Below are positions 17,467-64,000 of a stretch of 64,000 nt of DNA, piece after piece. The stretch lies in assembly GCA_964630405.1 (NCBI GenBank), contig CAZVUC010000056.1:8499-72498 (forward strand). Reading direction: 5' to 3'. The DNA comes from an uncultured Syntrophobacterales bacterium (lineage in GTDB: Bacteria > Desulfobacterota > Binatia > UBA9968 > JAJDTQ01). The position numbers and the translations under genes were made by a program. Every line of letters starts with the position of its first letter. Position 1 is the first letter of the stretch. A model generated the notes under the pieces. The model was not told the origin of the DNA. It saw only the letters and a program-made list of their open reading frames with translations, and ran no database searches.

Positions 17467-17482
17467 GGCGCAAGAGGCCGGG

Positions 17483-20782: not shown

Positions 20783-20882
20783 GACTCCTCCGTGGCTCCT
20801 CACCTATCACACGGATGTTTCGGCGGATAGCGCCTGCTCCTGCCGCCTTCCAAAATCACCGCCGCCGCCGCATAATGCGGCC

Positions 20883-31975: not shown

Positions 31976-31985
31976 CGCGAGCGTC

Positions 31986-32231
31986 TCAGGAGAAGTCCGG
32001 AGGCTCGCGCATCGGACCGCGCGGAGGAAGTTCGAGTTCGACGCCGCCAAGGGGCGCGAAGCACTCCCGGGTAAACTTCGCCAGATCCCGTGGAACGGTC
32101 CGCCCGCCGTTCACCACGTCGCGCAGGATAACGCGCACCTCTTCCTCCATGGAGCGGTGGTGCTCGGCCGCGCGCACGCGCAGGCGCGTCTTCACGTCGT
32201 CGTCAAGATTGCGGATCGTTATGCTCGCCAT
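31986..32231 (-). CDS. FitA-like ribbon-helix-helix antitoxin
   Basis: MASITIRNLDDDVKTRLRVRAAEHHRSMEEEVRVILR, directly upstream of the PIN gene. Confidence 0.9.
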   Translation of the reverse strand: MASITIRNLDDDVKTRLRVRAAEHHRSMEEEVRVILRDVVNGGRTVPRDLAKFTRECFAPLGGVELELPPRGPMREPPDFS

Positions 32232-47131: not shown

Positions 47132-48505
47132 CTAACGACGGCCGCGCCGGCGCAGGGCCTGTGGCGTGAACTTCTTTCGTTCCAACGGTATGTCGAACTC
47201 GGCCGCCTCGGACTCATTGGTCAGGCCCTTGGCCAGGTATCGTCCGTTCTGGAGATCGTAGACCGCCAACCCTGTCTGCCACAGCACCGGCACCTGGTAG
47301 TGGTTGACGATCCAGGACTGGCTCACCCGCCAGATCTTGCCGCGGGCGTCGTACTGGTCCACCACCGCGATCTGCCAACTGTCCTCGTCGAGATAGAACG
47401 TGCGACGCGGATAGATGTGGCGGGTGCCCTCCTTCAACGTCGCCTCCACCACCCACACCCGGTGCAGCTCGTAACGCGTGAGGTCCGGGTTGACGTGGCC
47501 GGGCTTCAGGATGTCGTCGTAGCGATAGCGGTCGCTGGCCAGCTTGTAGCTGTTGTAGGGGATGTAGACTTCCCGCTTGCCCAACAGCTTCCAGTCGTAT
47601 CGGTCCGGCGCGCCGTTGTACATGTCCGCCTGATCGTTGGTGCGCTGGCCGTCGGAGCCGGTGCCGGGGTTGTCGTAGCCGACGTTGGCGGCGCGCCGGA
47701 CGCGCCGCTGTCCGGGGTTGTAGATCCAGGCCTTGCGCGGCTCCGCGGCCTGGTTCAGGGTCTCGTGAACGAGAACGAACGTGCCCGCCAGTCTGGCCGG
47801 GGACAGCACTTCCTGCAGGAAATAGGCGAGCTTGTTGTCGATGTTGTCGGTGGTGGCGCCGGGCTGCTGATACCCCCACAGCACCTGCTCCCGGATTTGC
47901 ACCACGACGTAGGCGCCGGCGGCCGTGGGCGCGGCCTGGCCGCTGGTAACGCGCGCGGACTTGCCGCGGTAGCGCAGAAGATGGTTCCAGATGGCTTCAA
48001 GGCCGTTCTTGGGGATCGGAAAAGGCACGCCCTCCGCGGCGTTCACCACGCCGTTGCCGTCCTCGGTGAGCATCGCCGTCGTGGCGTTGGCGATGGTCCG
48101 CTCGTAGATCCGCCGCGGCAACGACGCCGTGCGCCGGGTCTCGTAAACCGGCATCCGGTAGGTCTTGGGATAGCGTTGGATCACCGCGATCTGGCCGGGC
48201 GTGAGGTTGGCCTCGTATTTCCGGAAATTGTCCGCCGTGATGGTGAAGAGCGGCTTGTCGTCCGGGAACGGGTCGACGAGATGCTTGCCGCGCCGGTAGC
48301 CGGCCGGCGGCTCCCTGATGCCGCCTTCCCACGCGGGTATGGTGCCGGATTCGTTGCCCGCGCGGGTGGCTCCCAATGGCGTCAACTCCGCACCCAGTCT
48401 GGCCGCCTCCGCGGCCGTGACCTTCGCCGCCGCCGGCGCCGCCGCGACCAGCGCCAACGCGAGCGCGGCTGCCTGCATGGCCCATCGTACCTTCATGTCA
48501 TCCAT
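47132..48505 (-). CDS. DUF1329-family periplasmic protein
   Basis: Signal peptide, LTPLGATRAGN..GTIPAWEGG, AWIYNPGQRRVRRA, YDWKLLGKRE.YIPYN, RYELHRVWVVEA. Confidence 0.88.
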   Translation of the reverse strand: MDDMKVRWAMQAAALALALVAAAPAAAKVTAAEAARLGAELTPLGATRAGNESGTIPAWEGGIREPPAGYRRGKHLVDPFPDDKPLFTITADNFRKYEANLTPGQIAVIQRYPKTYRMPVYETRRTASLPRRIYERTIANATTAMLTEDGNGVVNAAEGVPFPIPKNGLEAIWNHLLRYRGKSARVTSGQAAPTAAGAYVVVQIREQVLWGYQQPGATTDNIDNKLAYFLQEVLSPARLAGTFVLVHETLNQAAEPRKAWIYNPGQRRVRRAANVGYDNPGTGSDGQRTNDQADMYNGAPDRYDWKLLGKREVYIPYNSYKLASDRYRYDDILKPGHVNPDLTRYELHRVWVVEATLKEGTRHIYPRRTFYLDEDSWQIAVVDQYDARGKIWRVSQSWIVNHYQVPVLWQTGLAVYDLQNGRYLAKGLTNESEAAEFDIPLERKKFTPQALRRRGRR

Positions 48506-48537
48506 CCCTCGATAGTCTTTCCAAGATGCTTGCGACC

Positions 48538-50508
48538 CTAGAAGGAATAGCTTGCCGTAAGCGACACGAAGTCGCGATCGCCCAGCAGGTTGTGCGCGCC
48601 TCCGCCAAAGAAGTTGGTATACGAGAGCTGGGCGCGCCACGACACGAGGTAGCTCGCGCCCAACGACAGCGTCACCGTCTTGCGTCCCTCTATGAAGTTG
48701 CTGATGGGAGTGGGCGCCGTACCGCTGACGTCGTGGGCAAGGGCGATCCGAGGGGTGAGACTGACCGGGCCCAGCGCGTTGCTGTAGGTCGCTTGCATCA
48801 CCGCCCGGTAACCCCAGGAGAACGCATCGGCGAAGCCGCTCACCTGGGTCTTCGGCTGTATGTTCCGCGTAGTAAAAAGTTCGGTGCCGCTGGTGTACGT
48901 GGCCGGACCGTCGTAGCGGAGCACCGACTTGTCCTCCATGCCCCTTACCTGGGTAAAGCCGGCCTCAGCCAGCACCAGCACATCGCCTGCCCCCAACATG
49001 GGGCCCAACGCCTTCGTGACCGCGAGGGAACCCTGGACCACGTCCTTGCGGCGGAAGCCCGTAACCTCTTCCCCTGGTTCCCGCGCGCCGGTCTGGCTCT
49101 CGCCGAACAACCTGCCGAGACCGGCCAGACCCGTGAGCAACCGCTTGCGGGGATGCTGCGGCGGCAGGGCCGCCGCCTGAGCCGCGAGCTTCCGCAGCGG
49201 CGAATAGGCGGAAAAGAGAAGCTCTACGTTGTCGACCTGGAGCGGCTGATTCCGGCGATAGGCGATCTCGCCCTGGACGGTGAAACCGCTGGCCCCCAGC
49301 TCGCCGTTGAAGCTTGCGCCCATGAGGTCGATGTCCTCGGGGAACTCCCGGAAATACCGCACGGAGCCGGCAAAGCCCCCGGGGGCGGTCAGGGCCCGGT
49401 GGTCGCCGGCGATGAACGACACCAGCGGCAGACGGCTGTGGATGCGCGCGTAGTAGAGACCCAACTCGGTGTCGTTCAGCGCCGCGGCGAAATAGCGCAG
49501 GGCGACGCCGAACTGTCCGTCGTGGCCGGCGTCCCGGTCGGCGGCACGCGGCACGCGCGAGCAACGGCCCGCCGGGTTGATCCGGCTCGGGCAGGCGGGG
49601 TCCGGCATGTTGTCCCTGTCGTCACCCCTGTTCCTGTCGCCGAGGCCAAGATGGACGGTGTCCGCCCCCGGCCCCGCGGTGTCGGAGACGGAGAAAAACG
49701 TGCCCTTTGCTTCGATCTCCGAGTTAGCCCAGCGGAATTGGTAAAAACCTTCGAGGAAGAGGCTGTCGCCGATGCCCAGCTTTGCATTGGCGGCAGGGAC
49801 CGGGATGAGGACGTCGCGCAACTCCGCGCCGGCTATCCGCAACCTGGCGACGTCGGCCGGGTTGATGGAGTTGACGCCGCTACGGAGAAAGACGCTCTCG
49901 CCCCAGCTTATGACCTGGTTTCCCAGCCGAATCGAAACCGGCACCGTGCCGGCGTCGACATCGCCCGTGACATAGGCGTCCAGCAGCTTGAAGTCTCGCC
50001 CAGCGTGGCCCTTGGCGGTCGCGGACAGTTCCGTGTGCTCGGTGTCGCCATCGGCGACCACGTGATCGTAGAAATACAGTACCCGCCCGAATAGCCCCAA
50101 CTCCGCGCCCGGACTCTCCAGGTTGAGCTGCAACTCGTGGTTCACCTTGGCACTTAGCGACACGAAGTCGCCCCGGTCGTAGTTGAGATTGCCGTCGTCG
50201 TTGTTGAAGGACAACGCCTTGCCGCCGCTACCCCTGCTGAACAGACGCTCGTCACGCCCCGAGACACGCATGGCCGCACCCGTGGAAATGGTGGTGTCGA
50301 AGTGTCCGGTGATGCCGCTTTCGTTGGCGGGCAACTGCATGGCGGGCGCGGAGCGAGGGGTTGACAAGGCAACCGTCGCCAGCAGACCCGTCAATACGAA
50401 CCCCGCGAAGACGGACCACGGAAACCCGGCATTGCGGCGCGAGTCATCGCGGTATGACGCGATCCCCGACAACATGTGGCGATCGGCTGTCCCCTTCCCA
50501 AAGTCCAT
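48538..50508 (-). CDS. DUF1302-family outer-membrane beta-barrel protein
   Basis: DDGNLNY, LLDAYV, RLGNQVISWGES, DAGHDGQFGVA, GEIAYR and terminal DRDFVSLTASYSF (C-terminal Phe). Confidence 0.88.
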   Translation of the reverse strand: MDFGKGTADRHMLSGIASYRDDSRRNAGFPWSVFAGFVLTGLLATVALSTPRSAPAMQLPANESGITGHFDTTISTGAAMRVSGRDERLFSRGSGGKALSFNNDDGNLNYDRGDFVSLSAKVNHELQLNLESPGAELGLFGRVLYFYDHVVADGDTEHTELSATAKGHAGRDFKLLDAYVTGDVDAGTVPVSIRLGNQVISWGESVFLRSGVNSINPADVARLRIAGAELRDVLIPVPAANAKLGIGDSLFLEGFYQFRWANSEIEAKGTFFSVSDTAGPGADTVHLGLGDRNRGDDRDNMPDPACPSRINPAGRCSRVPRAADRDAGHDGQFGVALRYFAAALNDTELGLYYARIHSRLPLVSFIAGDHRALTAPGGFAGSVRYFREFPEDIDLMGASFNGELGASGFTVQGEIAYRRNQPLQVDNVELLFSAYSPLRKLAAQAAALPPQHPRKRLLTGLAGLGRLFGESQTGAREPGEEVTGFRRKDVVQGSLAVTKALGPMLGAGDVLVLAEAGFTQVRGMEDKSVLRYDGPATYTSGTELFTTRNIQPKTQVSGFADAFSWGYRAVMQATYSNALGPVSLTPRIALAHDVSGTAPTPISNFIEGRKTVTLSLGASYLVSWRAQLSYTNFFGGGAHNLLGDRDFVSLTASYSF

Positions 50509-50525
50509 GACTCGGTCCTCTCCGG

Positions 50526-50846
50526 TTATCCGGGTTCCACCTCGGCCGCCCGCTGCAGCGCCGCATAGAAGTCCCGGTACGGCGTCCCGGCGATCTCCTG
50601 GGGCATCTCCCGGACGATCTCCACGGTATAGTCCCCGCGCAACTCGACGCCCACCACGGTGCGGACCAGGAGCCCGTCGCCCGGGCCGCCGCCCTCGCGG
50701 ACGATGCCCACCACGTGCCTGAGCCCGTACTTGCCCCGGCCCGGCCGCAGGTCCCTCAGGACCATCGGCGTCTCCACGCCGCACCGGACGTCCCCCGGAC
50801 GGCGCACGAAGGTATCCCATACCCGAGCATCACTGCTTGAAGCCAT
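50526..50846 (-). CDS. Phenylphosphate-carboxylase gamma-subunit-like (PpcD/AbcD-like) small protein
   Basis: WDTFV..LRDLRPG..KY..R.V...D.L.VR...G...Y.V.I matches the recalled Phenyl_P_gamma pattern. It overlaps the UbiD stop and has a GGAG RBS. Confidence 0.72.
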   Translation of the reverse strand: MASSSDARVWDTFVRRPGDVRCGVETPMVLRDLRPGRGKYGLRHVVGIVREGGGPGDGLLVRTVVGVELRGDYTVEIVREMPQEIAGTPYRDFYAALQRAAEVEPG

Positions 50847-52299
50847 ACTCGCTCCAGTTCTTCAGCACCTTCTCCCGCACCTCTTCCGAGAAGATCGAAT
50901 CCAGGGTCGCCTTCACCGGCGTCTCCCATTCGCGGGACCACTCACCCGGCCAGGTGCAGTCGTACAGCACCGTGGCGCCCTTCTGCGCCGCCCGCTCCGC
51001 CTGGCTGTAGCACGGCGTCAGCGTGTTGGCCCGCCCCTCGTAGTGGATCACATGGATGCCGTTGGCCGGATGGCACTTGGTGGAAAACGCGTGAAGGACC
51101 TTTCCCATGTCGAACACGTCGGTGTCGGTATCCACCAGGAAGAGCTTGGAGAGGAGCGCCCGGCGCGAGGTCAGCACCTGGAGCACCTTCCGGGCCACCT
51201 CCTGGCCGCCGTAGTCCACGCTCATGACCGCCAGGTGCACGGCGCCCTCCGGCGGCACGTACACGTCCCGAACGGGCACGCCGTGGCGCTCCAGCCGCCG
51301 CTTGATGGCCAGCGCTCCGGACAGCGCCGTCACCGTGGAGCTGTCATCCTTGTAGCCCGTGGCATCCACCGTGAGCACCGGCTTCTCCCGGTGGGTGATG
51401 GCGGTGGTGCGGAACAGGATGCCATTGCCCATCTCCCCGGTGCGGTAGCCCGGATACTCGCCGTAGGGTCCCTCCAGCCCCACCCGGTCGGGCAGCACCT
51501 CGCCCTCGATGACAATTTCGGAATGGGCCGGCACGAGAAGATCGCTGGTCTCGCACCGGACCATCTCCACCGGCCGGCCGCGCAACCCGCCGGCCAGTCT
51601 GGCCTCGTCGCCGCCCAGGGCGTAGGTGGCGGCCGCCGCGAAATGGGAGAGTGGATCCGTGCCGATGGCGATGGCCAGGGGCATGGGCTTCCCCTTGGCC
51701 ACGTAGTGCTCCTGGAAGACCTTGCCCAGATGGCTCGTGGGCCGCGGGAAGCCGGTGAGGTGATGCGCGTCGTAGACCATGAACCGGTACATGCCCCAGT
51801 TGACCCAGCCGCTGTCCACGTCCTTGGAGATGACCAGATCCCAGGTGCCCAGGTAACGGCCGCCGTCGCCCTCGTGAAGCATGGGCGTGGGCAGGTCGAA
51901 CAGGTTGGCGTCGGCCCCCTTGCGGATCACCTGCTTGCACGGCGCTTCCTCCACCTCCACCGGATCGACGGGATTCCCCTCCCCCTTCTCGTAGGCTTCG
52001 TAGATCTCCCGCACCGTGGCCGTGGCGGGCAGCCCCAGGGCGATGGCGATGCGGCGCCAGGTGGCCACCGGATTGACGAAAACCGAGACCTCGTCCAGGT
52101 AGTCGGTGACCCGCTTGAACCACACCGCCGGGCCGTCCTTCTCGCACGCCAACCGGCTGATGGCGCCGAGCTCCAGGTCCCAGCTCACCTCCTTCTCCAC
52201 CTCCACGAGGTCGCCGGAGCGGCGGAGCGCCTCGATAAAGCTTCGATTGTCATCGAAAATCATGATGGGAAACGTAAGGTGCCGATCACTCGATTGCAA
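50830..52299 (-). CDS. UbiD-family (de)carboxylase of the phenylphosphate-carboxylase alpha/beta type
   Basis: NRSFIEAL, HEGDGGRYLGTW, VNWGMYR, EGPYGEYPGYR, DCTWP.EW and terminal KVLKNWSEYGF resemble PpcA. The start may be ATG 52263. Confidence 0.9.
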   Translation of the reverse strand: MQSSDRHLTFPIMIFDDNRSFIEALRRSGDLVEVEKEVSWDLELGAISRLACEKDGPAVWFKRVTDYLDEVSVFVNPVATWRRIAIALGLPATATVREIYEAYEKGEGNPVDPVEVEEAPCKQVIRKGADANLFDLPTPMLHEGDGGRYLGTWDLVISKDVDSGWVNWGMYRFMVYDAHHLTGFPRPTSHLGKVFQEHYVAKGKPMPLAIAIGTDPLSHFAAAATYALGGDEARLAGGLRGRPVEMVRCETSDLLVPAHSEIVIEGEVLPDRVGLEGPYGEYPGYRTGEMGNGILFRTTAITHREKPVLTVDATGYKDDSSTVTALSGALAIKRRLERHGVPVRDVYVPPEGAVHLAVMSVDYGGQEVARKVLQVLTSRRALLSKLFLVDTDTDVFDMGKVLHAFSTKCHPANGIHVIHYEGRANTLTPCYSQAERAAQKGATVLYDCTWPGEWSREWETPVKATLDSIFSEEVREKVLKNWSEYGFKQ

Positions 52300-52306
52300 G
52301 CAACTC

Positions 52307-53449
52307 CTACCGACGGGCTTCGTCGAGGGCGATGAGGGTGAAGACCTTCTTCATCTCCTGTTTCCTGAACTTGCCCGAAAGGCGGCGCATGACCTCACCC
52401 TTGTTCTCGGACAGCTTGATGCCCACCTGCCGGTATTCGGCCATCACCCGGCTCTTGAACTCCATCTCCTCGCACACCTCGGCGATGCACTCGTCGATGC
52501 AGGTCCGGAACCGCTCGATCTCGTCGTCGGCGTACTCCTCCGCCAGCAGCGGATAGAGGGTCTCGTAGGTCAGCACGTCCTGCGTCTCGAACAGGTTCCA
52601 GCAGGTGGCGGTCACCGCGGCCTTGTTGATGCCGGCGACCCAGTGCACCTCCTCCACCGACTCGGGCTTGCACTTGAACAGCACGGTGTCATCGTCCCGT
52701 GTACGCACGTACCAGACGGCGCCCTCGACTCCGGTGATCTTGCCATCGTCGGCCGGCGTGTTGCCGCTCTCCAGCCGTTCGCGGATCGCGGCGTACTCCG
52801 CCACGGGATCCTTCCCCGCGCTCAGTGTGCCGTACAGGGTCGCCACGGGAACTCCCCGGCTGTCCAGGGCCGACGGCGGCAGCGGCTTCCCGCCTTCGGC
52901 AACGCCGAACAACAGCACGCAATCCAGGGGTTCCTCGTACAGGATGAGATGAGTGTTGCGCCTGCCGTAGAGCTCGAAGCCCAGGGAGCAGCCGTTGATC
53001 TCCACCAGCTCGGGAATGACCGGGTAGCGGAGCAGCATCTCCCGCCACATGTCCAGGAACGCGCCGAACCGGCCGTTGCGCAGCACCGGGGACAGACGAA
53101 GCTTGTAGGTCAGATAACGGCGCCCCCGGGCGTCATGATAGGCATAGGCCAGCACATTGGTGCCGTCGTATTTCTCGAAGACCTCGATCTGGCTGACCGG
53201 CGGGAAGCTGAACCGGCCTTGCCGGTCGAAGGGGTAGTGCAGCTTGGGGGTGGCGAAGACGAGTTGCGGCGCGGGTTCATCGTTGACATGGGTAACGGCC
53301 AGCGCCCCGTACCGGTGGTCCGGCCGGCGCGACAGGAAGCCCCGCAGCGCGATGTCGTTGAAGGGGTCGACGACGTCGAACTCCTGGAGCCACTTGGCGT
53401 CCAGGGAAAGAGTCTCGGCGACGGTTTGCAGGTCGTCCATTTGCTTCAA
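52307..53449 (-). CDS. ATP-dependent RNA-ligase-fold nucleotidyltransferase (Rnl2/Rnl3-like)
   Basis: Motif I EKYDGTN, III FELYG, IIIa LLFGV, IV EGAVW, V FKCKP, and an upstream TPKL segment. Confidence 0.75.
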   Translation of the reverse strand: MKQMDDLQTVAETLSLDAKWLQEFDVVDPFNDIALRGFLSRRPDHRYGALAVTHVNDEPAPQLVFATPKLHYPFDRQGRFSFPPVSQIEVFEKYDGTNVLAYAYHDARGRRYLTYKLRLSPVLRNGRFGAFLDMWREMLLRYPVIPELVEINGCSLGFELYGRRNTHLILYEEPLDCVLLFGVAEGGKPLPPSALDSRGVPVATLYGTLSAGKDPVAEYAAIRERLESGNTPADDGKITGVEGAVWYVRTRDDDTVLFKCKPESVEEVHWVAGINKAAVTATCWNLFETQDVLTYETLYPLLAEEYADDEIERFRTCIDECIAEVCEEMEFKSRVMAEYRQVGIKLSENKGEVMRRLSGKFRKQEMKKVFTLIALDEARR

Positions 53450-53477
53450 CCCAGCGTCCGGAATACCCCCGCTCCCC

Positions 53478-54836
53478 TCACCCTTGTCTCCTGTCCCGGA
53501 TCCGTCTCACCTTGATGCGGTTCTCCACCCCGAGTGAACGGCCCAACTCGCCCGGCGATAGCAGCGAGGCATCCATGGTGAGGCTCGTCGCTACCTTGAG
53601 CTCCCGCTCCAGCCGTTTCTTGATATCCCCCGTGGCCTCGCAGCCGGGGCGCATTTCCACCTCCACCGTCAGGGTGTCCTGCTGGCCTGCGCGGTCCACC
53701 GTGACCAGGTACTCGCGGGTAAGCTCGGGCAGGCGCTCCAACGCGGTCTCCACCGAGGTGGGATAGAAAGGGATGCCGCTCACCTTCACCATGTCACTGA
53801 GCCGGCCCCTGAGCTTGGAGATGCGCCGGAAGGTGCGGCCGCAGCCGCAATCGTCTTCGATGAGCTCACACAGGTCCTCGATGTTGTAGCGGATCACCGG
53901 CGCCGCCTCCTTGAAGAGGCAGGTGACCACCAGCACGCCCTCGCTGCCTGGCGCCACCGGCTCGTGGGTGGCCGGGTCCAGCACCTCGAAGATGTAGGCG
54001 TCCTCGTTGACGTGGTAACCGCTCCGTTCCTCGCACTCGAAGGTCGGGGAGCCGGTCTCGACGCTGCCGAAGTTGTCGTAGGCGGACACGCCCCAGCGGC
54101 TCTCGATGGCCCGCCGCGCCGCCTCCGTCATGGTCTCCGAGGTATGGATGGTGCGCCGGAGGCGGAAGTCCTTCCTGAGGTCGAGTCCCTGCCCTTCGGC
54201 CACATCGGCCAGATGGAGCACGTAGGACGGCGTCCCGGCGAGCACGGTGGTGCCCCAGTCCCGGGCGATCTTCACCTGACGCTCGCTCGGGGTCACGCTG
54301 CCGCTGCCCGTGGGCACCACCAGCGCCCCGAGCCGCATGGCCCCTTCGGAGGCGGTGAACCCCACGATGAAGAGCGTGTAGGCGAAGACGACCTGGAGGA
54401 TGTCCCCTTCCCTCACCCCTTGGGCATGGAAGCGCCGGCTCCACAGCCGGGCGATGATGTCCCAGTCGTTTCGGGTGAAGAAGAAGGGCTTGGGGTTGCC
54501 CGAGGTGCCCGAGCTGGCCTGGACCCGCACCGCGGCGAAGTCGCCCTGGTAGTCGCCGAAGGGCGGATGGAGCCGCAGGCTGTCCTCGAAGTCGCTCTTT
54601 CGGATGACCGGCAGCTTGCGGATGTCTTCTGCCGCGCGGATGTCCCCGGGCTCGATTCCCGCCGCCTTCCAGCGGTCACGGTAGAACGGAATGCGGTCCC
54701 AGGAACGCCGCACCAGGGCGGCCAGGCGTTCGCCCTGGAGTTGCCGGATGACCTCCGGCGATGCCGTCTCGATCTCGTGGCTCTCCGGCGCGCCGGGGTA
54801 TGTTTCGTTCACGGCGATTCTCGGACTCCCGTCCAT
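53478..54836 (-). CDS. Phenylacetate-CoA-ligase-like (PaaK/F390-type) adenylating enzyme
   Basis: RIPFYRDRW, SSGTSGNP, GTPSYVLHL, DNFGSVE, PVIRY, GRLSDMVKVSGIPFYP motifs. Confidence 0.88.
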   Translation of the reverse strand: MDGSPRIAVNETYPGAPESHEIETASPEVIRQLQGERLAALVRRSWDRIPFYRDRWKAAGIEPGDIRAAEDIRKLPVIRKSDFEDSLRLHPPFGDYQGDFAAVRVQASSGTSGNPKPFFFTRNDWDIIARLWSRRFHAQGVREGDILQVVFAYTLFIVGFTASEGAMRLGALVVPTGSGSVTPSERQVKIARDWGTTVLAGTPSYVLHLADVAEGQGLDLRKDFRLRRTIHTSETMTEAARRAIESRWGVSAYDNFGSVETGSPTFECEERSGYHVNEDAYIFEVLDPATHEPVAPGSEGVLVVTCLFKEAAPVIRYNIEDLCELIEDDCGCGRTFRRISKLRGRLSDMVKVSGIPFYPTSVETALERLPELTREYLVTVDRAGQQDTLTVEVEMRPGCEATGDIKKRLERELKVATSLTMDASLLSPGELGRSLGVENRIKVRRIRDRRQG

Positions 54837-54915
54837 GGGCCTTTCCACCGCTTCCGGGTCCGCGCCCGTGGAGTGTGGTTGTTTAACAGATCGACACCGA
54901 TGGGGTTAGTGTCCG

Positions 54916-56649
54916 CTACCCGTGTGTGAGGCGCTCGACGTGTTCGTCCACCGCGAATCGGAAGGTCTCCAATTCGGGCTCTATTTCGTCACCATCATAG
55001 CGATAGCCACCAGGGATCGATCGGTAGCGGGCGTCGACCCGCGTGAACAAATCGTCCCGGCGTTCGCCGATTGCCTCGACCGGCTCGAAGGATCGGAAAC
55101 CCGCTTCCCGGAAAAGGCTCAACTCTTCCGCCAGGAACTCCTTGAAGTCGTGAATCGCCATTTGCTGCCGGGTGACCTTCTCATAGTGGTACCCCAGTGC
55201 AGCCAGTCCGATCGCTTCCGGAAGCATCCGTGGATACGCTTCGGAAACCTTGGCAATGAACCGGTTGAAGGACTGGAGCTGCGTCGGAGAAAGCCGCTTG
55301 CGGACGATCATGAGTCTCAGGAACAGTGCGTTCTTGCTCATCGGTTTCCGCAGGTGCGGAACGGGTGTCAGGTGCTCCAGCAGTGTCAGGCAGCGTTTGA
55401 AGTAGTTCTCCAGTGTCGGGTCGTAGATGGTGCTCATCACTCGCCGGTATCCGTCAATCAACGTCTTGATGTCCATCTGCGGCTTGAAGTTGACGGTCGT
55501 GGCGACGGTTCCGATGGATACGTCCAGCAGCCGGTTCTCCCTCTTCAGGCGCTGGTAGAGATTCGTGTCCTTCAAAGCCGTCAGCAGGTAGATGGCGGCC
55601 ATCGGAATGCCGGCCTCCTGGATGAAGTCGATCTGTGCGTCAAAGGCATCCGCGCCATCTTCATCGAGCCCCAGTATGAAGCCTCCCAGGACCTGCATCC
55701 CCTTGCCTTGGATCTTGCGCACGGCGTGGAGAAGATAGTTCTCCTCCCGCGTGCTGACGTTCTGTGGTTTCTTGACCTTGAGCAAAGCCTCGGGATTCGG
55801 CGTTTCGATGCCCAGAAACACGGAGTCGAACCCGGCCTCGATCATGACATCCATCAAGGCATCCATCCGGGCGAGATTCACAGAGGCTTCAGTGACCAGG
55901 GAGAACGGATAGCCACGGGCCTTTTGCCAGCCGGCGATGACCGGCAGCAACTCCGTTGCGGCCCGCTTGTTGCCGATGAAATTGTCGTCCACCAGGAAGA
56001 GAGGGCCACGCCAACCCAGCCGATAAAGGGCTTCGAACTCGTCAAGCATCTGCTCCGGCGACTTGGTCCGGGGCACGCGCCCGTAGAGCTTGGTGATGTC
56101 GCAGAACTCGCAGTCGAACGGACATCCGCGCGAGAACTGCACGCACATCGAGTGGTAGGCCTCCCTATCGACGAGGTCGAAACGGGGAACCGGCGTCCGG
56201 GTGACATCGGGTTTCCGCCGCTCCCGGTAGATGGCCTTGGCCGTGCCGTTCTCCAGATCACGCAAGAAATCGGGGAGGACCTCCTCGGCCTCGTCCAGAA
56301 CGAAATGATCGACCCCGTCGATCTCCTCATGATACGTGGTGGGATAGGGTCCGCCCGCCACCACGGGAAGACCGGCCCGACGGCATCGTTCGATGACGCC
56401 TCGCAAAGAGACTCGTTGAACGATCATGCTGGAGGTAAACGCCAGGTCGGCCCATTCCAGATCCGACTCCTCCAACGAGGTCACATTCATATCCACCACG
56501 CGTAGGTCGTATTCGGGCGGAAACATCGCGGCAACGGTCAGCAGGCCCAAGGGCGGGTAGGCGGCCTTCTTGCCGAGCAGTTCCAAGGCATACCTGGCCC
56601 CCCAGAAGGCAGGGGGTTGTTCGGGATAGATGAGAAGTGCATGCGGCAT
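54916..56649 (-). CDS. swfC: Cobalamin-binding radical-SAM protein (class B methyltransferase, HpnP/DUF4070-like)
   Basis: YPPLGLLTVAA B12-domain start, SRGCPFDCEFCDI CxxxCxxC, FLVDDNFIGNK, FLGIETP; third gene of the PKS cluster. Confidence 0.85.
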   Translation of the reverse strand: MPHALLIYPEQPPAFWGARYALELLGKKAAYPPLGLLTVAAMFPPEYDLRVVDMNVTSLEESDLEWADLAFTSSMIVQRVSLRGVIERCRRAGLPVVAGGPYPTTYHEEIDGVDHFVLDEAEEVLPDFLRDLENGTAKAIYRERRKPDVTRTPVPRFDLVDREAYHSMCVQFSRGCPFDCEFCDITKLYGRVPRTKSPEQMLDEFEALYRLGWRGPLFLVDDNFIGNKRAATELLPVIAGWQKARGYPFSLVTEASVNLARMDALMDVMIEAGFDSVFLGIETPNPEALLKVKKPQNVSTREENYLLHAVRKIQGKGMQVLGGFILGLDEDGADAFDAQIDFIQEAGIPMAAIYLLTALKDTNLYQRLKRENRLLDVSIGTVATTVNFKPQMDIKTLIDGYRRVMSTIYDPTLENYFKRCLTLLEHLTPVPHLRKPMSKNALFLRLMIVRKRLSPTQLQSFNRFIAKVSEAYPRMLPEAIGLAALGYHYEKVTRQQMAIHDFKEFLAEELSLFREAGFRSFEPVEAIGERRDDLFTRVDARYRSIPGGYRYDGDEIEPELETFRFAVDEHVERLTHG

Positions 56650-56666
56650 GGCGGCGAGGTTGGCGG

Positions 56667-59174
56667 CTATCGTGGACGCCCTTGTCGAATGGCCGACCGG
56701 GACAAGAATTCCCGATACGATGCGAACGCGCCGTCCACCGCCTCCACGGTGAGACCGTAGTCCTCCAGGGCGTAGCGATGCCGCTTCTCCCGCCGCCGGC
56801 GCTCTGCCTGCCGGAACAGCCAGTCGTCCATGGCGTCGACGGTCCCCTGCTCCAGCGCCCAGCCGAACCGTTCATACACGCTGCGCACGACGGCCGACGG
56901 GTCCTCCACCAGATCGACGTAGTTCACGTCCATCCAGCGGTCCTCCAGCTCGGGGTGAGATTCGCGGAACCGCACGGCCCTGTCCATCATGCCGCTCATG
57001 AAGGTCAACATTTCGGCGCCGAGGTCATGCCGCGGGCGGGGCTCGCTGGCGAGCGAGCGCGCCTTTTCCACGAAGCTGTTCCAGGAACCCATGAATTGAC
57101 CCGGGCTGCGATGGGTCTGGATGAAGAGGGCGTCGGGATAGGTCTCCACGAGGGTCTCCAGCTCCATGAGATGAAAGGGCATCTTGAACAGCCACTGCCC
57201 CTGGTGCTCCGGCTCGCGCTGCCGGCGCTGCCAGGTCAGGTTTTGCATGATGCGGCGGTGATGAGCGTAGGCATGCCGGCAACCGGTGGCGGCCAGCCAA
57301 CGGCCGAACTCCGGGACACGGAACTGGATGGTCAAGGTCCAAGAGCCAAAGGACAAGTTCAGGAGCGAGAAATCCTCCACCGGTTCGTCGATGTTGAATT
57401 CGTGGATACCCTCGAAAATATCGACGAGCCTGGATACGTCGAGCATCTCCTCGACCCGCTTCCGACGGGGATCGTCAAGGGTTCCTCCGATGGCGGCATA
57501 TTCCTCCTTCGACAGGATCGGCGGGGCGTACTCGTAGCCTAGCGGCGACCAGAACCGTCGGTCGCGGGCCATGAGACGGTGCAGATAAGTGGTGCCGGTG
57601 CGGTTGATCCCCACAATGAAGACCGGTTGCCGGATCCGCTCCCGTTCGATCTCCGGATACTGAAGCCGTTCTCGGGCGAACCCGGCGTTGTTGCGCAGGA
57701 GACGGCTCAGGCCGAAGATGGTGTTGCCAAGCTTGTCCTCCAACAGAGCCGCATCGGGATCCTGCAACGCACGTACCAACTGCTGCAGGTTTCGGCGCAT
57801 CCATTCGGGATACACCTGCTCGGAGGGGACGCCGTAGCGGTCGGCATAGCACTCGGCCCGGGCCATCAGGCCTTCGAAGTCCAAACGGGGTTGCGCTACG
57901 GGATGGGGCCATTGCCACCGATGCTCCATGACCCACTCGACGGACCCTCTCAGCTTGGTCAACGTGCCCGGCCATTTGATCGGATGCGGACAATCCTCGC
58001 GGATGGCACGATCGCAGACGGGCAGCCACTCCTTGGGCTTTTGCTGGCTGAACCAGTGCTCCTGGAAATGATCGAGCACGGCCCAGTGTCCGTCAAGCGC
58101 GGAATCCTCGCGGGCGTGGCAGGCGCGCTTGAATGACTCGTAGGAAACCTCGGGCAGGTAGTTTCCGAAATCGGCGAGCTCGAGATCACCGGAATCGAGC
58201 TTCGGATTGCAGCAATGATAGACCGTGAACCGGCGCTCCGGGTTCAGGGAGATGGCCGTACAGGCCCGACTCAACGTATCCACCGTCTCGTTGCTGGATT
58301 GAAACGAGAATCCCGCCGGGATGATCCCGCTTTGAAGCACCGCGGCCAGTATCTTCATCGTGAAATCGTTTGCCCGAACGAAACCGTTGCTGGCCAAGGC
58401 GGTTTGCGGCAGCCGGAAGAGCGCCAACGGCATTCCGGCCTGTTGCGCGAAAAGTAGCACCTGCTCGGACGTGAGCTTGCTCCAGGGGTAGCCTAGCAAA
58501 CCGATGGGGAACCTTCTCTTCATGGTGGCGAGGTCCGGTTGCATCTGGTGCTCGATGGCGCTGTTCTGGAATTCATCCGCGAAGGCAAAGAAGTACTGCG
58601 GAAACACGCCCATGGTCGAGGCATGGAACAAGTGCTTGAAGCGCTTCCGCAGACACAGCTCGATCACGTTGTGAATGCTGAGTGTGTTGACCTTGCGGAT
58701 GGCGAGATAGGAAGAAGCGAGATTGACGTCGGCGGCGAGGTGATAGACCGCATCGATCCGCTCACAGAGATCGTCGAAACGCGCATCGCTCAGACCGAAG
58801 CGGGCGGCGCCGATGTCGCCGACCACCACCCGGATACGCGACGCGAACGACTCATCCCAGACTTCGGCCTCTTGCAGCGCATCATGCAGGCGTTGGAATC
58901 CCTGCCGGACATCATCTGCCCGCACGACACAGTGAACGACCAGACCGCTGTCATGCTGCAAGAGGTCGCGCAGGAAGAAACGACCGATGAAGCCGGTGGC
59001 TCCGGTCAACAGGACCTCCCGGAAGTCGGCCGGCGATACGGCATCCGCCGGCGACTCCTGGCTGACGGCTCCATGAATGAAGCGTCGCATGACTTGCACG
59101 TCTCTGTGACACTGTGGCGGCAGCGCCCCGACCAGCGGCGGCACTTTCGTCTCGGCGGAGGAGATTTCACCCAT
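56667..59174 (-). CDS. swfB: Thioester reductase (R) - sulfotransferase (ST) didomain protein
   Basis: VLLTGATGFIG, YHLAA and GYPWSK (SDR YxxxK-like) in the N-half; PVFIVGINRTGTTYLHRLM (PAPS loop), WLFKMPFH and THRSP..SW in the C-half. Confidence 0.85.
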   Translation of the reverse strand: MGEISSAETKVPPLVGALPPQCHRDVQVMRRFIHGAVSQESPADAVSPADFREVLLTGATGFIGRFFLRDLLQHDSGLVVHCVVRADDVRQGFQRLHDALQEAEVWDESFASRIRVVVGDIGAARFGLSDARFDDLCERIDAVYHLAADVNLASSYLAIRKVNTLSIHNVIELCLRKRFKHLFHASTMGVFPQYFFAFADEFQNSAIEHQMQPDLATMKRRFPIGLLGYPWSKLTSEQVLLFAQQAGMPLALFRLPQTALASNGFVRANDFTMKILAAVLQSGIIPAGFSFQSSNETVDTLSRACTAISLNPERRFTVYHCCNPKLDSGDLELADFGNYLPEVSYESFKRACHAREDSALDGHWAVLDHFQEHWFSQQKPKEWLPVCDRAIREDCPHPIKWPGTLTKLRGSVEWVMEHRWQWPHPVAQPRLDFEGLMARAECYADRYGVPSEQVYPEWMRRNLQQLVRALQDPDAALLEDKLGNTIFGLSRLLRNNAGFARERLQYPEIERERIRQPVFIVGINRTGTTYLHRLMARDRRFWSPLGYEYAPPILSKEEYAAIGGTLDDPRRKRVEEMLDVSRLVDIFEGIHEFNIDEPVEDFSLLNLSFGSWTLTIQFRVPEFGRWLAATGCRHAYAHHRRIMQNLTWQRRQREPEHQGQWLFKMPFHLMELETLVETYPDALFIQTHRSPGQFMGSWNSFVEKARSLASEPRPRHDLGAEMLTFMSGMMDRAVRFRESHPELEDRWMDVNYVDLVEDPSAVVRSVYERFGWALEQGTVDAMDDWLFRQAERRRREKRHRYALEDYGLTVEAVDGAFASYREFLSRSAIRQGRPR

Positions 59175-59235
59175 GGTTTGTTTTCCGGTGGTCTGTGGTC
59201 TGTATGGAGCGTCGTTCCATCGGTGTTGACGGCGG

Positions 59236-62200
59236 TCAGCCCGCGGCGATCTCTTCCGGGAGACCCGGCTCGACGCCGGCCCCGCGCGGGAAGTGGTCTT
59301 CGAGCCGGTTGGCGAAGACGGATGGTGCGCGGCAGACCCGTTGCCGGGCGGCAAGTTGAGCGTCTTCGGACCCGGCCGCATCCGTCTCGGCCTGGTCTCC
59401 GTCGGCGTCCTTCTTCCCGTGGATAATGTCCTGCGCCAACGAGAGCGCGGAAGCCGTGGTCATCAACTCCAATGCGCTCACGCGGTGGTTGAACTGCGTC
59501 TGGATGAAGGTCCCCAACTCGGCCACCGAGATCGACGTCAGCCCGAAGCTCGACAACGGCTCCTCCACTCCGCCCTCGTCATGACCGCAGAGCTCCGCGA
59601 CCTTGCCGGCGATCTGCGCTACCACGGCGTCGACCGTCAACTCCCCGGCCGCCCCCACCTCGAAGGCGTCCTGGTTCGGCAGCAAACGTCCGACGCGCAT
59701 ATAGTCCGGGGAGTCGACCCGCCACGCCGGGCTCTCGAACAAGGCCGTGATCAAGTGGTCCCGGTCGGGCATGGAGCGCATGGCGTAGTCCAGGTTGGAG
59801 ACGGCGAACTGGCTGCTCACCGGCGGAATGCCGGCGGCCCTCATCAGTCGCAGCACCGGGAGGCTGCGCGCGGCCATGCCGGCGTCGGCAACGGCGGCCA
59901 TGTTGTAGGCCAGACCGGGCAGGCCCTGCCGTCGGCGGTACGCGGCCAAGCCGTCCAGAAAGGCGTTGGCGGCGCTGTAGTTGACCTGTCCGGGATTGCC
60001 CAACACCGAGGAGGTCGATGAAAACAGCACGAAGTGGTCGAGGGCGCAGGCGGCGGTGGCCCGGTGGAGATGGAGGGCTCCGGAGGCCTTGGGGGCGAAG
60101 ACCTTCGCCACGGATTCCTCCGTCATGTCCACCAGCAGACCGTCGTCGAGCAAGCCGGCCAGGTGAAACACGCCCTTCAGGGGCCTCTTCAATCCGGCGA
60201 TACAGCGTTGGACATCCTCTTCCATCGCCACGTCGCCCGATACGATATCGAATTCGACCTCCTCATCCATGTAGGTCAAGGCGCCCGACCGGCGGATCCA
60301 ATCGGCATCCCGGCGGCGCTCGGGGTCGCGGTCCATGAGCGTGAGGTGGCGAGCGCCGGCAGCCACCAGGTAGGGCAGCAACCGCATCCCGAAGCCGCCG
60401 AGGCCGCCGGTCACCAGGTAGGTGGCGTCGGGGTCGAGGAACGGCCGCACGTCGGCCACCGTGAACCCGGCGTCCTCGGACGCTTGCGGCGCCTTGAGCA
60501 CCAGCTTTCCCTGATGCTGGCCGGTGGTCATCAAGCGGAGCGCCTTTGCGTAATCCTTGTACGGAAAGACGGTTACCGGCAACGGTGGCAGCGCGCCTTG
60601 ATCGAGCAGGTCCAGGCAAGCCTGGGAGAGTTGATGGGTGAGGAACGGGTCGTCGATCATCAAACGGTCCACGTCGATGGCCGCGAACCGCAGGTTCTTG
60701 CGGAAGATGCGCAGACCGAGATCGTTGTCCTGGTAGATGTCCACCTTGCCGATCTCGCAATGCCACCCGCCCGGCCGCAGCGCCCGCAGGCACAACTCGA
60801 CGTGGCGCCCGGCCAGGGAGTTCAATACGACATCGACGCCCTCGCCGGCGGTCGCTTCCATCAGGCTGTCGTACCAGTCGAAGCTGTGCGAGTCGAAGGC
60901 CGCGCGCACGCCCAGCGCCCTCAATTGTTCACGTTTGCTCTCGCTTCCGGCCGTGGCGTAGATCTCCGCTCCCGCGTGTTTGGCAAGGGCGATGGCGGCC
61001 TGTCCGACGCCGCCCATGGCAGAGTGGATGAGAACGCGTTGACCCTGCCGCAAGCGGGCCAGATGGATCAGCGAATAGTAGCCGGTGACGTACACGGACA
61101 GCGATGACGCGGCCTCTTCCATACTCAGACGGCCGGGCTTGCCGAAAACCAGATGTTCGTTGAGCACCACCCGATTGGCGATGCACCCGCCGGTGGTGAA
61201 CGCCACCTCGTCGCCCACCCGGCAATGGGCCACGCCCGGCCCGACGCGGCGGACGGTGCCGGCGCCCTCGATTCCGACTTCGCGGCCGAGAGCCGACCGC
61301 TCGTATGCCAGCGCCGGCAACAACCCCAGCGTCACCATGACGTCGCGGAAGTTGAGGGCTGCCGCCTCCACCCCTATTTCCACGTCGCGCGGCTTCAGCG
61401 GCGGTAGCTCGCGGGTCTTCATCCCCAGGCCGGTGATCTGGCCCGGGTTGTCGAGAGTGAGCCGGTACGCGGCCTCCTCGCCGGCGGGCACCAGCGGATA
61501 TCGATCCCGGATGCTGACAAGCCGGGGCGCCCACAACCGGTTCCCGCGCACCGCCAGCTCGCGCTCGCGCAAATCGCAGCGGGCGAGTTCCGCCAAGGTC
61601 TCCAGGTCTTCCTGGGCGCCCAGGTCCACAAGACGGAACCGGATCCCCGCTTCTTCGCCGATCTCGAGGTCCATGCTCCGGACCGCTCCCCACAACGCGC
61701 CGCCGCGCGGCTCCTCCACCTCGAAGGCAGCACCCTGCGTCACCACGGTCACGCGGCACGGATGCTTCGCGTCCTCCATTCTGGCGAGCACCAGGGCCCG
61801 GACCAGTGCGATGAGCCGCGCCGACACCTTCTCGCCCGTCGTATCCCGCGGGTCTCTGCCGCAGAAGAAGTCGATGGCCCGCACCCCGGTGACTTCCGGC
61901 CACTCCGCAAGCGACTCGAAGTCTCCCGCGGCAACGGTCTCCCAGGGGATCCGGCGCAGGTCGGGCGCATCGAGCAGGGAGGCCCAGTCCTCCGCACAGC
62001 TCTCCGCCTCGCCTAGAACCCACCGCGGGCCGGGAAGATCCCCTGGGTCACCCGCATCGGGACGGGCCTGGGAGGCCTGCAGCAGGGTGGTGCGCCGGCC
62101 TGCGCGAATCGTAACCCAGCCGGCGCCCGGCTCGATGACGTCGCCCTCGTCGTGGCACACCAGGGCCAGGCCGCCGGCGACCGCCAGTCTGTGCAGGAAA

Positions 62201-64000
62201 ACCCACCGCTCCGGCCCGAAGTCTCCGGCATCCCGATGCAGAAAGATGATCTCGGCGGCGCCCGGACGCAGCAGGCCTTCTTCCAGTTGCCGCTCAACGG
62301 CGGGGTCAAGGCTTTCGAAACGGACCGCGGCCCCCTGCTGGTGGAAGGCCTCGTAGTGGGCCCGGCTACTCTCCTCGCTGTCGCTCACGAGCCAGAACTC
62401 GGACTGCCCGCCCGGACCCGAAAGCCCCTCGACGCACTGCTTGAGAATCGTCTGGTCGGGTCCGCGATCGCCGGCGAACTCGACGACGTGGCAGGCATGA
62501 CCAGGGCCTCCGTCGGGCCGTTCCAGGGCCGCGATCAACGCGGCGGGCTCGATCTCGCCGCCGGGCAGCCGGTCCACGAGAGCCGGTCCGGTGGGGAGGA
62601 ATTTCGGCTGCCAGGAGATCCCGTGCTTGCTGCGCGGCAGGTCGCCCCAGCGCGGATTGGATACGAAGGATATGTACTTGTCGATGTGGGCGATGAGGTT
62701 TCCGGTGGCGTTGTCGTAGAAGCTCACGCTGCCGCCGGTGGTTTCGCCGTAGTGAACCGTATACTGACCTTTCTCGTTCACATGGTACCAGCCGTCGGCG
62801 GGCTTGGTGACGAGAACGGTGATCCGCGGCGACGTCGGCGCGCCCAGGAACGTCACGCCCTCGGCCCGCTGCGGTATGGCGAAATGATCGCTGCCGAGCA
62901 TCAGGTTGTACAGGAATATCTGCAGGCCTCCGTCCAGCAAGGGGACGGACGCGACATACCCCTCGTCGTCGCCGGCCTTCCACAGGCTCTCGTCCATCTC
63001 CACGTCCACAAGATAGGCGCGGGTGGCCATGTCCATCCGGACCTGCTTCATGGTCCTGAAATTGGGGCCGTATTGAAACGTCTCGCTGAGCGCGGCTTCG
63101 AAGCGTTCGTAACAATCGCTTTCGTCGGCGAGGACCGAGCGCTCGAAGCGGGCCATGTCGATGTCCGCCAGGCGGGCCGGCACCTCCAGCGCCGGGGCGC
63201 CGCTCAGCCGGCGCACCTTGCCGCGGCAATGCATCTCGCTTCCGGCGTCGACGTCGAAGGAGCGGGAGGAGATGGTGAAAGTGAACTCGTCGGGAGCGTT
63301 CGCCACCGGGTGCACGGCCGTCTGCAGGCGCACCGGCGTCTTGGGAATGGGACAGGGCTGGAGGAACTCGAGGACCTCGATATGGACCGGCGCTCCCTCG
63401 AACGCCTCCAGGACCAGCTCGATGTAGCCGGCCGCCGGCATGATGGCCGCGTAATGGACGAGGTGCTCCGCCAGCCAGGGAAAGTCCTTGTCGGAAAGGC
63501 GCGCTTCGAAGAGCATGTGATCGGAAGGCACCTTGTGCCCCACCAGCGGACCGTGGGAGTACTGGCCCTGCCGGATGAACATCTCGTCATCGCACAGGAC
63601 GTCGATGGTCGCCTGCTCTTCTCTCGGATGGCCGGGCAGCAGGTGGGCGACGGGCTCGGGGCGCGGATACTGGGCGGTGAAATCCAGGTCCACGCCGGCC
63701 CTGAAAAGGGCGCCCAGCGCCTCCTGGAAGTTGCGGCAGACGTCGGCGTCACGCATCAGCGTCGGAATGCAGAAAGACCCCTGAGCATTGCCTTCCAGGC
63801 ACTGCGCGATGACCGGCTGCAGGGCGCTGTGGGGCGCGATTTCAAGCACCACGTCGGGCCGGTATTCCCGCTGGATGGTTTCCATCGCCGCCGCGAACCG
63901 CACGGGCCGGCGGATATTGGACCACCAGTAGGCGTTGTCCAGCCGCTCCGCCTGCTCGCCGGTCACCGAAGAAACGAGCGGAACGTCGGCGTCGATGGCG
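59236..64000 (-). CDS. swfA: Mono-modular highly reducing type I PKS/FAS (AT end-DH-pseudoMT-ER-KR-ACP); 5' end beyond the window
   Basis: AT end YWWSNIRRPVRF..LEIAPH; DH WLAEHLVHYAAIMP; ER ALNFRD and HSAMGGVGQAA; KR YLVTGGLGGFG, HLAGLLDD, YSAAN; ACP FGLTSIS; no TE. Confidence 0.9.
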   Translation of the reverse strand, partial: AIDADVPLVSSVTGEQAERLDNAYWWSNIRRPVRFAAAMETIQREYRPDVVLEIAPHSALQPVIAQCLEGNAQGSFCIPTLMRDADVCRNFQEALGALFRAGVDLDFTAQYPRPEPVAHLLPGHPREEQATIDVLCDDEMFIRQGQYSHGPLVGHKVPSDHMLFEARLSDKDFPWLAEHLVHYAAIMPAAGYIELVLEAFEGAPVHIEVLEFLQPCPIPKTPVRLQTAVHPVANAPDEFTFTISSRSFDVDAGSEMHCRGKVRRLSGAPALEVPARLADIDMARFERSVLADESDCYERFEAALSETFQYGPNFRTMKQVRMDMATRAYLVDVEMDESLWKAGDDEGYVASVPLLDGGLQIFLYNLMLGSDHFAIPQRAEGVTFLGAPTSPRITVLVTKPADGWYHVNEKGQYTVHYGETTGGSVSFYDNATGNLIAHIDKYISFVSNPRWGDLPRSKHGISWQPKFLPTGPALVDRLPGGEIEPAALIAALERPDGGPGHACHVVEFAGDRGPDQTILKQCVEGLSGPGGQSEFWLVSDSEESSRAHYEAFHQQGAAVRFESLDPAVERQLEEGLLRPGAAEIIFLHRDAGDFGPERWVFLHRLAVAGGLALVCHDEGDVIEPGAGWVTIRAGRRTTLLQASQARPDAGDPGDLPGPRWVLGEAESCAEDWASLLDAPDLRRIPWETVAAGDFESLAEWPEVTGVRAIDFFCGRDPRDTTGEKVSARLIALVRALVLARMEDAKHPCRVTVVTQGAAFEVEEPRGGALWGAVRSMDLEIGEEAGIRFRLVDLGAQEDLETLAELARCDLRERELAVRGNRLWAPRLVSIRDRYPLVPAGEEAAYRLTLDNPGQITGLGMKTRELPPLKPRDVEIGVEAAALNFRDVMVTLGLLPALAYERSALGREVGIEGAGTVRRVGPGVAHCRVGDEVAFTTGGCIANRVVLNEHLVFGKPGRLSMEEAASSLSVYVTGYYSLIHLARLRQGQRVLIHSAMGGVGQAAIALAKHAGAEIYATAGSESKREQLRALGVRAAFDSHSFDWYDSLMEATAGEGVDVVLNSLAGRHVELCLRALRPGGWHCEIGKVDIYQDNDLGLRIFRKNLRFAAIDVDRLMIDDPFLTHQLSQACLDLLDQGALPPLPVTVFPYKDYAKALRLMTTGQHQGKLVLKAPQASEDAGFTVADVRPFLDPDATYLVTGGLGGFGMRLLPYLVAAGARHLTLMDRDPERRRDADWIRRSGALTYMDEEVEFDIVSGDVAMEEDVQRCIAGLKRPLKGVFHLAGLLDDGLLVDMTEESVAKVFAPKASGALHLHRATAACALDHFVLFSSTSSVLGNPGQVNYSAANAFLDGLAAYRRRQGLPGLAYNMAAVADAGMAARSLPVLRLMRAAGIPPVSSQFAVSNLDYAMRSMPDRDHLITALFESPAWRVDSPDYMRVGRLLPNQDAFEVGAAGELTVDAVVAQIAGKVAELCGHDEGGVEEPLSSFGLTSISVAELGTFIQTQFNHRVSALELMTTASALSLAQDIIHGKKDADGDQAETDAAGSEDAQLAARQRVCRAPSVFANRLEDHFPRGAGVEPGLPEEIAAG

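Follow-up and report, generated by a model that had tools for sequence, protein, structure and literature searches.

A swf-family cluster from a probable Candidatus Binatia-type sponge symbiont, and its single-chain relatives in Actinoplanes

The locus described here lies in the window, by which we mean the whole stretch of 64,000 nucleotides of contig CAZVUC010000056.1 that was analysed, where three long, co-oriented open reading frames (ORFs) on the minus strand fill positions 54916-64000. Its assignment to the swf family ("sponge symbiont widespread FAS", with FAS for fatty acid synthase), described by Della Sala et al. in 2013 as a family of three genes (PMC3908369), is well supported by sequence comparison. 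Across the family, the comparison shows a conserved core of swfA and swfB, fused in some bacteria, with swfC as an optional companion. Regarding the product, we see a somewhat better than even chance that the cluster acts by iterative chain synthesis, reductive release and O-sulfation, which would yield a primary alkyl sulfate, with SwfC as an optional tailoring enzyme. The swf clusters are among the few biosynthetic clusters common to unrelated symbionts in many sponges; what the window itself adds is one more host lineage, the Binatia, and a variant of the gene order.

Membership in the swf family

As defined, swfA encodes the domain series ketosynthase (KS), acyltransferase (AT), dehydratase (DH), enoylreductase (ER), ketoreductase (KR) and acyl carrier protein (ACP), with the motifs DPQ[I/V]R and HATGT in the KS and GHSSGE, IAFH and QCALVEL in the AT; swfB encodes a didomain of reductase (R) and sulfotransferase (ST); and swfC, which encodes a B12 radical S-adenosylmethionine (SAM) enzyme, is optional and absent in PSA11D7 (PMC3908369). 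An earlier note made from the letters of this DNA had described co-oriented genes, with an R-ST didomain followed by a cobalamin radical SAM gene and gaps of 61 and 17 nt. Pfam domains of both proteins were found (for SwfB, NAD_binding_4 at 2e-47 and Sulfotransfer_3 at 6e-33), and the gaps measured exactly 61 nt between swfA and swfB (59175-59235) and 17 nt between swfB and swfC (56650-56666). The longest ORF for swfB, 56667..59381, overlaps the 3' end of swfA, and its start was placed at the ATG at 59174, given that the homologues have 834-835 residues and that DNA homology begins 7 nt upstream of this codon. Chance ORFs are excluded by Pfam E-values down to 1e-53, by a coding-like GC content at third codon positions (GC3) and by orthologues of 51-91% identity in 60 other swf-type loci. 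In addition, four sponge-metagenome runs gave independent short-read contigs that span all three gene junctions, which excludes an assembly artefact as the source of the arrangement.

The cluster had been called complete, which does not hold, since swfA is cut by the end of the window: its frame is still open at 63999, and the first Pfam match covers positions 228-318 of the 319 of the AT model. Judged by an orthologue of 2347 residues, around 765 N-terminal residues (KS, linker and most of the AT) lie off the window, which in alignment with this orthologue opens about 25 residues past IAFH, in such a way that all SwfA signature motifs fall beyond base 64000. The description of a fully reducing single module without thioesterase (TE) is therefore right for the AT tail, DH, ER, KR and ACP and for the absence of a TE, and it goes beyond the window for the KS and most of the AT. 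With the signature motifs out of sight, the case for membership is carried by the orthologues, by SwfB and SwfC, and by the origin of the DNA.

The orthologues were collected by scanning a single genome for each GTDB species with SwfB, which gave 57 loci, to which three from an assembly collection were added, making 60. The nearest ones come from two metagenome-assembled genomes (MAGs) of Candidatus Binatia, L001 (OY762897.2) and L002, and from two ENA contigs, L058 and L059. The identities to these loci were 88-91% for SwfA and 86-89% for SwfC (L001 and L002), and 78-91% for SwfB, with the SwfA fragment 91% identical over 1584 residues to residues ~765-2347 of L001 SwfA. The latter has the full domain architecture, and DPQVR, HATGT, QCALVEL, GHSSGE and IAFH are all present in the L001 and L002 proteins, HATGT being found in essentially all full-length loci. 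The published clusters PS11G3, PSA11D7 and POR_0547-0550 show the same three-gene set, lack a TE and come from the sponge microbiome (PMC3908369). Their SwfA proteins have 2349 and 2361 residues compared with 2347 in the orthologue, their SwfB proteins 839 and 832 compared with 835, and SwfC 585 compared with 577. The A-B-C order of the window is that of PS11G3, and both published gene orders occur in the family. This likeness, judged by domain set, sizes, orthologue motifs and origin, bears out the earlier reading of the three-gene architecture as swf. The Binatia host is a difference, as the swf phyla named in the literature searched are Nitrospirota, Latescibacterota and Acidobacteriota.

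Protein domains and putative product

Catalytic motifs are intact in all the domains that can be read in the window, that is, DH, ER, KR, ACP, R, ST and SwfC (Table 1), and the DH motif HLVHYAAIMP carries a Tyr where Gly is usual. The phosphopantetheine Ser of the ACP is residue 1489 of the fragment (codon 59533-59535), with no TE after it; the ACP of published SwfA was turned into its holo form by Svp (PMC3908369). The reducing region is nearest to the iterative mycocerosic acid synthase (MAS), then to modular polyketide synthases (PKSs) and animal FAS. From its domain set, SwfA would be a mono-modular, MAS/FAS-like fully reducing synthase that works iteratively and leaves a saturated long acyl chain on the ACP.

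The methyltransferase-like (MT-like) region of SwfA is conserved across the swf family, with an invariant His172, and showed no match in Pfam and no sequence match in the Protein Data Bank (PDB) by sequence and profile searches. A word-indexed protein search with it returned nine gene fragments only, so that the alignment given to AlphaFold2 was shallow and the resulting model of low to moderate confidence, with a mean pLDDT (predicted local distance difference test) of 61.6 and one of five models above 42. This model consistently matches SAM-dependent methyltransferase folds, such as those of the C-methyltransferases in LovB, CurJ and DszA and of the pseudo-methyltransferase region in animal FAS, at template modelling (TM) scores of just 0.3-0.4. 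We tentatively interpret the region as a FAS-type pseudo-methyltransferase, a part of SwfA not previously reported and without mention in the 2013 paper (PMC3908369). An active C-methyltransferase within SwfA is unlikely in view of a degenerate motif I (E-x-A-G-x-R), a form that the fused relatives described below have lost as well.

When a profile of this SwfA-specific region was run against 1.84 billion representatives, only 67 relatives came up, and they included single chains of 3088-3183 residues with the domain order KS-AT-DH-x-ER-KR-ACP-R-ST. One of these fusions, WP_364477761.1 from the cultured Actinoplanes sp. NPDC051470 (GCA_040682035.1; locus L061, 10001-19267), is collinear with the window proteins and shares 49% identity with SwfA and 45% with SwfB. 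Further fusions are encoded in L063 (8001-17540) and by the metagenomic P0195 and P0209, and in a second Actinoplanes strain the fused gene is split into two ORFs (P0204 and P0250). The fused proteins retain HATGT, GYPWSK and NRTGTT and the MT-like region between DH and ER, whereas GHSAGE and DPQ[S/I]R appear as variants. Neither swfC nor the two small accompanying genes described in the next section were found near the fused genes (within 10 kb for Actinoplanes). One fused gene adjoins a phosphopantetheinyl transferase (PPTase) gene, with Bacteroidota-like neighbours on the contig, and another adjoins an MMPL lipid-exporter gene. Since in these chains the R domain occupies the position of chain release, directly after the ACP and ahead of the ST, the fusions support that sulfation would follow reductive release. 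Actinoplanes is a soil-type actinomycete, and a single-chain SwfA-SwfB relative in a cultured strain of this genus makes the chemistry solvable without the uncultured symbionts, this being the chief practical route to the question of the swf product.

The nearest PDB relatives of the R domain of SwfB are the R domain of MxaA (4u7w) and a PKS terminal R domain, and those of the ST domain are the mycobacterial sulfotransferases of entries 2zq5 and 2z6v. MxaA R carries the reduction of its thioester all the way to the alcohol. A primary alcohol was also obtained with the TR domain of Toxoplasma gondii TgPKS2 when assayed separately. The names on cluster members of ten SwfB matches were generic, such as "SDR family oxidoreductase" and "thioester reductase-like protein". 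In the pathway that we favour, the R domain would free the chain reductively as a fatty alcohol, for which the natural SwfA-SwfB fusions speak, and the fused ST would move sulfate from 3'-phosphoadenosine 5'-phosphosulfate (PAPS) onto this alcohol to give the primary alkyl sulfate.

Outside swf, the only other proteins with contiguous R and ST domains are, according to the 2013 paper (PMC3908369), the coccidian FAS. These type I FAS/PKS with C-terminal R-ST, likened here by their description, are eukaryotic and multimodular. Of all solved or curated proteins, the mycobacterial MAS and Pks2 stand closest to the SwfA reducing region and the Stf-type enzymes 2zq5 and 2z6v to the ST, with scores far below the family cut-offs. 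An iterative fully reducing lipid synthase combined with sulfation is also a theme of the mycobacterial sulfolipid-1 pathway. In sulfolipid-1 it is trehalose and not the lipid that carries the sulfate, methylmalonyl-CoA supplies the methyl branches, and an R domain is lacking.

SwfC has an N-terminal B12-binding domain and a radical SAM core, the class B architecture, with the cluster motif CPFDCEFC at codons 176-183 (56101-56124) in a CX3CX2C pattern; an exact look-up of the window SwfC in the assembly collection gave no record. It would be an optional tailoring enzyme, as swfC is missing within 10 kb in about a fifth of the loci (9/51) and in all fused forms; its most plausible role is the C-methylation of an unactivated carbon in the chain. 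This is the weakest step, since the scores of SwfC stay far under the cut-offs of all curated B12 radical SAM families and its relatives in the PDB are only weak, which makes methylation a guess by class. Its weak best matches include the non-methylases BchE, HpnJ, AprD4 and a ladderane-lipid radical SAM enzyme, all far below their cut-offs, as would be expected if SwfC catalysed another B12-dependent radical reaction on the lipid (C-C coupling, cyclisation or rearrangement). We consider such a reaction unlikely: the characterised class B enzymes are mostly methylases. Moreover, the published tree places SwfC with methyltransferases, nearest to HpnP (PMC3908369).

A methyl-branched alkyl sulfate is not a new idea, as it was already the hypothesis of the 2013 paper (PMC3908369). 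No paper testing it was found in the literature searched, nor, in agreement with the earlier note, any demonstrated product (PMC3908369 included). Besides the low scores and distant structural relatives of SwfC, several points weigh against the alkyl sulfate pathway. When the 2013 authors expressed the entire cluster in E. coli BAP1, no new metabolite appeared, and sponges are not known to contain alkyl sulfates as widespread lipids (PMC3908369). According to the literature, whether an R domain carries out a two- or a four-electron reduction is unpredictable from sequence. The KS and around 70% of the AT of this SwfA copy are outside the window and hence not visible, and no genes for a PPTase or for PAPS synthesis were found by domain scans of the ORFs in the window.

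The sulfate could instead be a leaving group, with elimination or substitution turning a transient alkyl sulfate into a terminal alkene, ether or alkylated product by the logic of CurM and olefin synthase, which likewise have a PAPS-dependent ST inside a PKS release module; SwfC would then perform radical chemistry on the activated chain. In favour of this, the 2013 authors point to curacin A, in which a leaving group arises by sulfonation, and they also remark that widespread alkyl sulfates are not known from sponges (PMC3908369). However, the CurM ST acts on a beta-hydroxyacyl-ACP and is followed by a TE, whereas in swf the R domain stands ahead of the ST, which would receive a primary alcohol as its substrate in place of a beta-hydroxyacyl thioester. 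Neither a TE nor a decarboxylase follows the ACP or the ST in SwfA, SwfB or the fused forms, and no extra enzyme able to use the leaving group is conserved beside swfA and swfB, the only recurrent partners being the two small accompanying proteins. The Actinoplanes fused gene has even these, and swfC, missing within 10 kb. We regard a leaving-group role as improbable.

An equally poor chance is given to an R domain that halts at the aldehyde, or an ST that sulfates an in-chain hydroxyl left where a reduction was skipped, with a sulfated hydroxy-aldehyde or hydroxy-alcohol as the product. Iterative synthases may skip reductive steps (PMC3908369), and the extent of reduction cannot be read from the R sequence, as mentioned above; but the DH, ER and KR motifs are all intact, the fusion of R and ST suggests consecutive steps at one terminus, and no transaminase or oxidase that could trap an aldehyde is conserved nearby. 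Finally, a capsule-lipid PKS of the wcbR/rkpA type or a sup-type synthase of methyl-branched fatty acids is hardly credible in place of swf, even if the first annotation of POR_0547 and POR_0548 was WcbR-like (PMC3908369) and Sup is the other sponge-wide mono-modular PKS, because no capsule biosynthesis or export genes are adjacent (the neighbours being aromatic-acid and transport genes), the orthologues have DPQVR and HATGT and not DPQQR and HGTGT, by which the 2013 paper separates Swf from WcbR/RkpA and cis-AT PKS, and the R-ST partner is characteristic of swf and otherwise contiguous only in the coccidian enzymes (PMC3908369).

A broader proposal is that the swf product might be an unseen class of lipids, long-chain, optionally methyl-branched alkyl sulfates, made by symbionts of a dozen named bacterial groups specifically for life in sponges, for instance as a host-directed signal or a surface lipid. 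We put it forward by analogy and as a long shot; bacterial sulfonolipids, the analogy for a host-directed role, act on choanoflagellates.

Table 1. Features of the window discussed in the text. GC, GC3 and z-scores (GC/GC3) are given for the three swf genes, with 38 background genes as the reference.
Feature	Position	Strand	Description	GC	GC3	z (GC/GC3)
swfA (3' part only)	59236..64000	-	1587 codons and stop; runs off the window end	67.3%	0.86	+0.6/-0.4
AT, C-terminal end	63721..63987	-	Pfam positions 228-318/319; downstream of IAFH, GHSSGE and QCALVEL			
DH	62710..63582	-	Pfam; catalytic His in HLVHYAAIMP, Asp motif LLDGGLQ			
MT-like region	61765..62667	-	~300 residues between DH and structural KR subdomain			
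ER	60493..61455	-	Pfam; NADPH motif HSAMGGVGQAA			
KR	59920..60459	-	Pfam; Rossmann GGLGGFG, LLDD (B-type), catalytic Tyr in YSAAN			
ACP	59464..59649	-	Pfam; phosphopantetheine Ser in FGLTSI			
swfB	56667..59174	-	835 residues; R and ST didomain (Pfam, NCBIfam)	62.0%	0.79	-1.6/-2.4
R domain	58062..59015	-	TGATGFIG (NAD(P)H binding), Thr in HASTMG, GYPWSK (Tyr/Lys)			
ST domain	56706..57665	-	5'-phosphosulfate loop GINRTGTTYL; motif HRSPGQFMGS			
swfC	54916..56649	-	577 residues; B12-binding, Radical_SAM and DUF4070 (Pfam)	59.7%	0.77	-2.6/-3.0
Run after swfC	47132..54848	-	PaaK-like CoA ligase, 380-residue protein, UbiD, DUF1302, DUF1329			
PIN-domain (VapC-like) protein	31553..32050	-				
Four-repeat rhodanese protein	29090..30694					
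Second UbiD paralogue	19430..20803					
Xanthine-dehydrogenase-type Mo enzyme	14260..18349					
tRNA-Met	4468..4544					
38 background genes			Reference	65.9 +/- 2.4%	0.87	

Gene order and accompanying genes

The genes swfA and swfB were adjacent in 51 of the 51 loci that hold both. The order A-C-B was found in 31 loci, including all four other Binatia loci, and A-B-C in nine, all of them from Gemmatimonadota; nine more had A-B only, and B-C-A and C-A-B occurred once each. Set against these 51 complete loci, the window is the only A-B-C locus from outside Gemmatimonadota. In the four Binatia relatives (L001, L002, L058 and L059) the genes follow one another as swfA-swfC-swfB with overlapping stop and start codons, and DNA alignment of the window (54916-59235) with L058 (8257-12524), L059 and L001 showed that the swfB and swfC blocks are cleanly swapped. 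The swap created new spacers, which are of 61, 17 and 67 nt in the window, and around 15 nt at the joint between swfB and swfC (56651-56665) are matched by both swapped blocks.

Two small proteins, one of 115 residues with a STAS domain and one of around 95 residues with no Pfam match, travel with swf across phyla, at least the gene of the latter being present in 43 of the 60 loci. Their genes sit just upstream of swfA or in divergent orientation after swfB. In the Binatia relatives both are directly upstream of swfA (L059 440-787 and 862-1155; L001 498-1164), and at the same place they would fall beyond the end of the window, a second respect in which the cluster is incomplete here. The consensus of the ~95-residue protein is VD..IVG.NI.DIA.FT.EKYEF..D.TL...RE...LW..VE.L..RR..L..MF., and the Nitrospirales loci have this protein only, at times in two copies. 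In the tables of the 2013 paper, the counterparts of the two are ORF18/ORF19 of PS11G3 and POR_0546 (PMC3908369).

Other genes were seen less often near swf: a PhyH-type Fe/2-oxoglutarate dioxygenase in 11 loci, mostly of Acidobacteriota (L004, 13621-14535), and an MFS transporter in eight (L008, 13316-15028). Neither of them was found close to the cluster in the window.

The genes of the co-directional run after swfC (Table 1) include a UbiD-family decarboxylase, which is phenylphosphate-carboxylase-like, and the 380-residue protein, which has no family match. They match L001 and L002 at 76-98% identity and are kept only in the Binatia loci, so they reflect synteny of the host, and the run from the PaaK-like ligase to DUF1329 was rejected as part of swf. 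In the other Binatia loci the start of the ligase gene overlaps the stop of swfB, and there the ligase may be co-transcribed with the cluster. A scan of 52-60 kb for promoters and terminators gave nothing above shuffled expectation, with no terminator after swfC, and an Rfam scan of the whole window for cobalamin and other riboswitches found one tRNA only.

Base composition, transfer and host

According to the earlier note, the cluster seemed more AT-rich than its flanks, and this was taken as a hint of horizontal acquisition. The first part is correct for swfB and swfC, which have lower GC than the background genes, and incorrect for swfA (Table 1). The hint itself fails. In 48 loci from many phyla, GC was below that of the flank in 97% of the cases for swfC, in 81% for swfB and in only 27% for swfA, with mean offsets of -4.7, -1.9 and +2.0 points, and the GC of swfB correlates with that of the flank (r = 0.85). 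As the same offsets recur throughout these 48 loci, the low GC is intrinsic to swfB and swfC and is not a mark of recent arrival. In agreement with this, the cluster occupies one chromosomal site in five Binatia loci, the window among them, and no integrase, transposase or other mobile-element genes were found among the ORFs scanned across the window. Recent horizontal acquisition deduced from GC was thus rejected, and the compositional signature of swfB and swfC could mislead the detection of genomic islands.

Transfer of swf between phyla is nevertheless real, as is evident from the gene trees. Neighbour-joining trees of SwfA, SwfB and SwfC show the phyla interleaved and disagree in their topologies, L050 and L034 being examples. 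The window falls inside the Binatia clade in all three. The independence of swf from taxonomy had already been noted by Loureiro et al. in 2022.

The proposal of a sponge-symbiont host gained support, as four runs labelled "sponge metagenome" hold 75-93% of the sampled words of the window DNA. Its closest relatives, Candidatus Binatia MAGs, have the same flanking genes, which supports a chromosomal location of the cluster in a sponge symbiont of the Candidatus Binatia type.

Positions 1-41000 of the window have the look of an ordinary heterotroph chromosome, with five TctC-family solute receptors together with TctA and TctB, and three Rieske oxygenases, one of them LigXa-like. The second UbiD paralogue, the molybdenum enzyme, the rhodanese and PIN-domain proteins and the tRNA-Met listed in Table 1 belong to the same part of the window.

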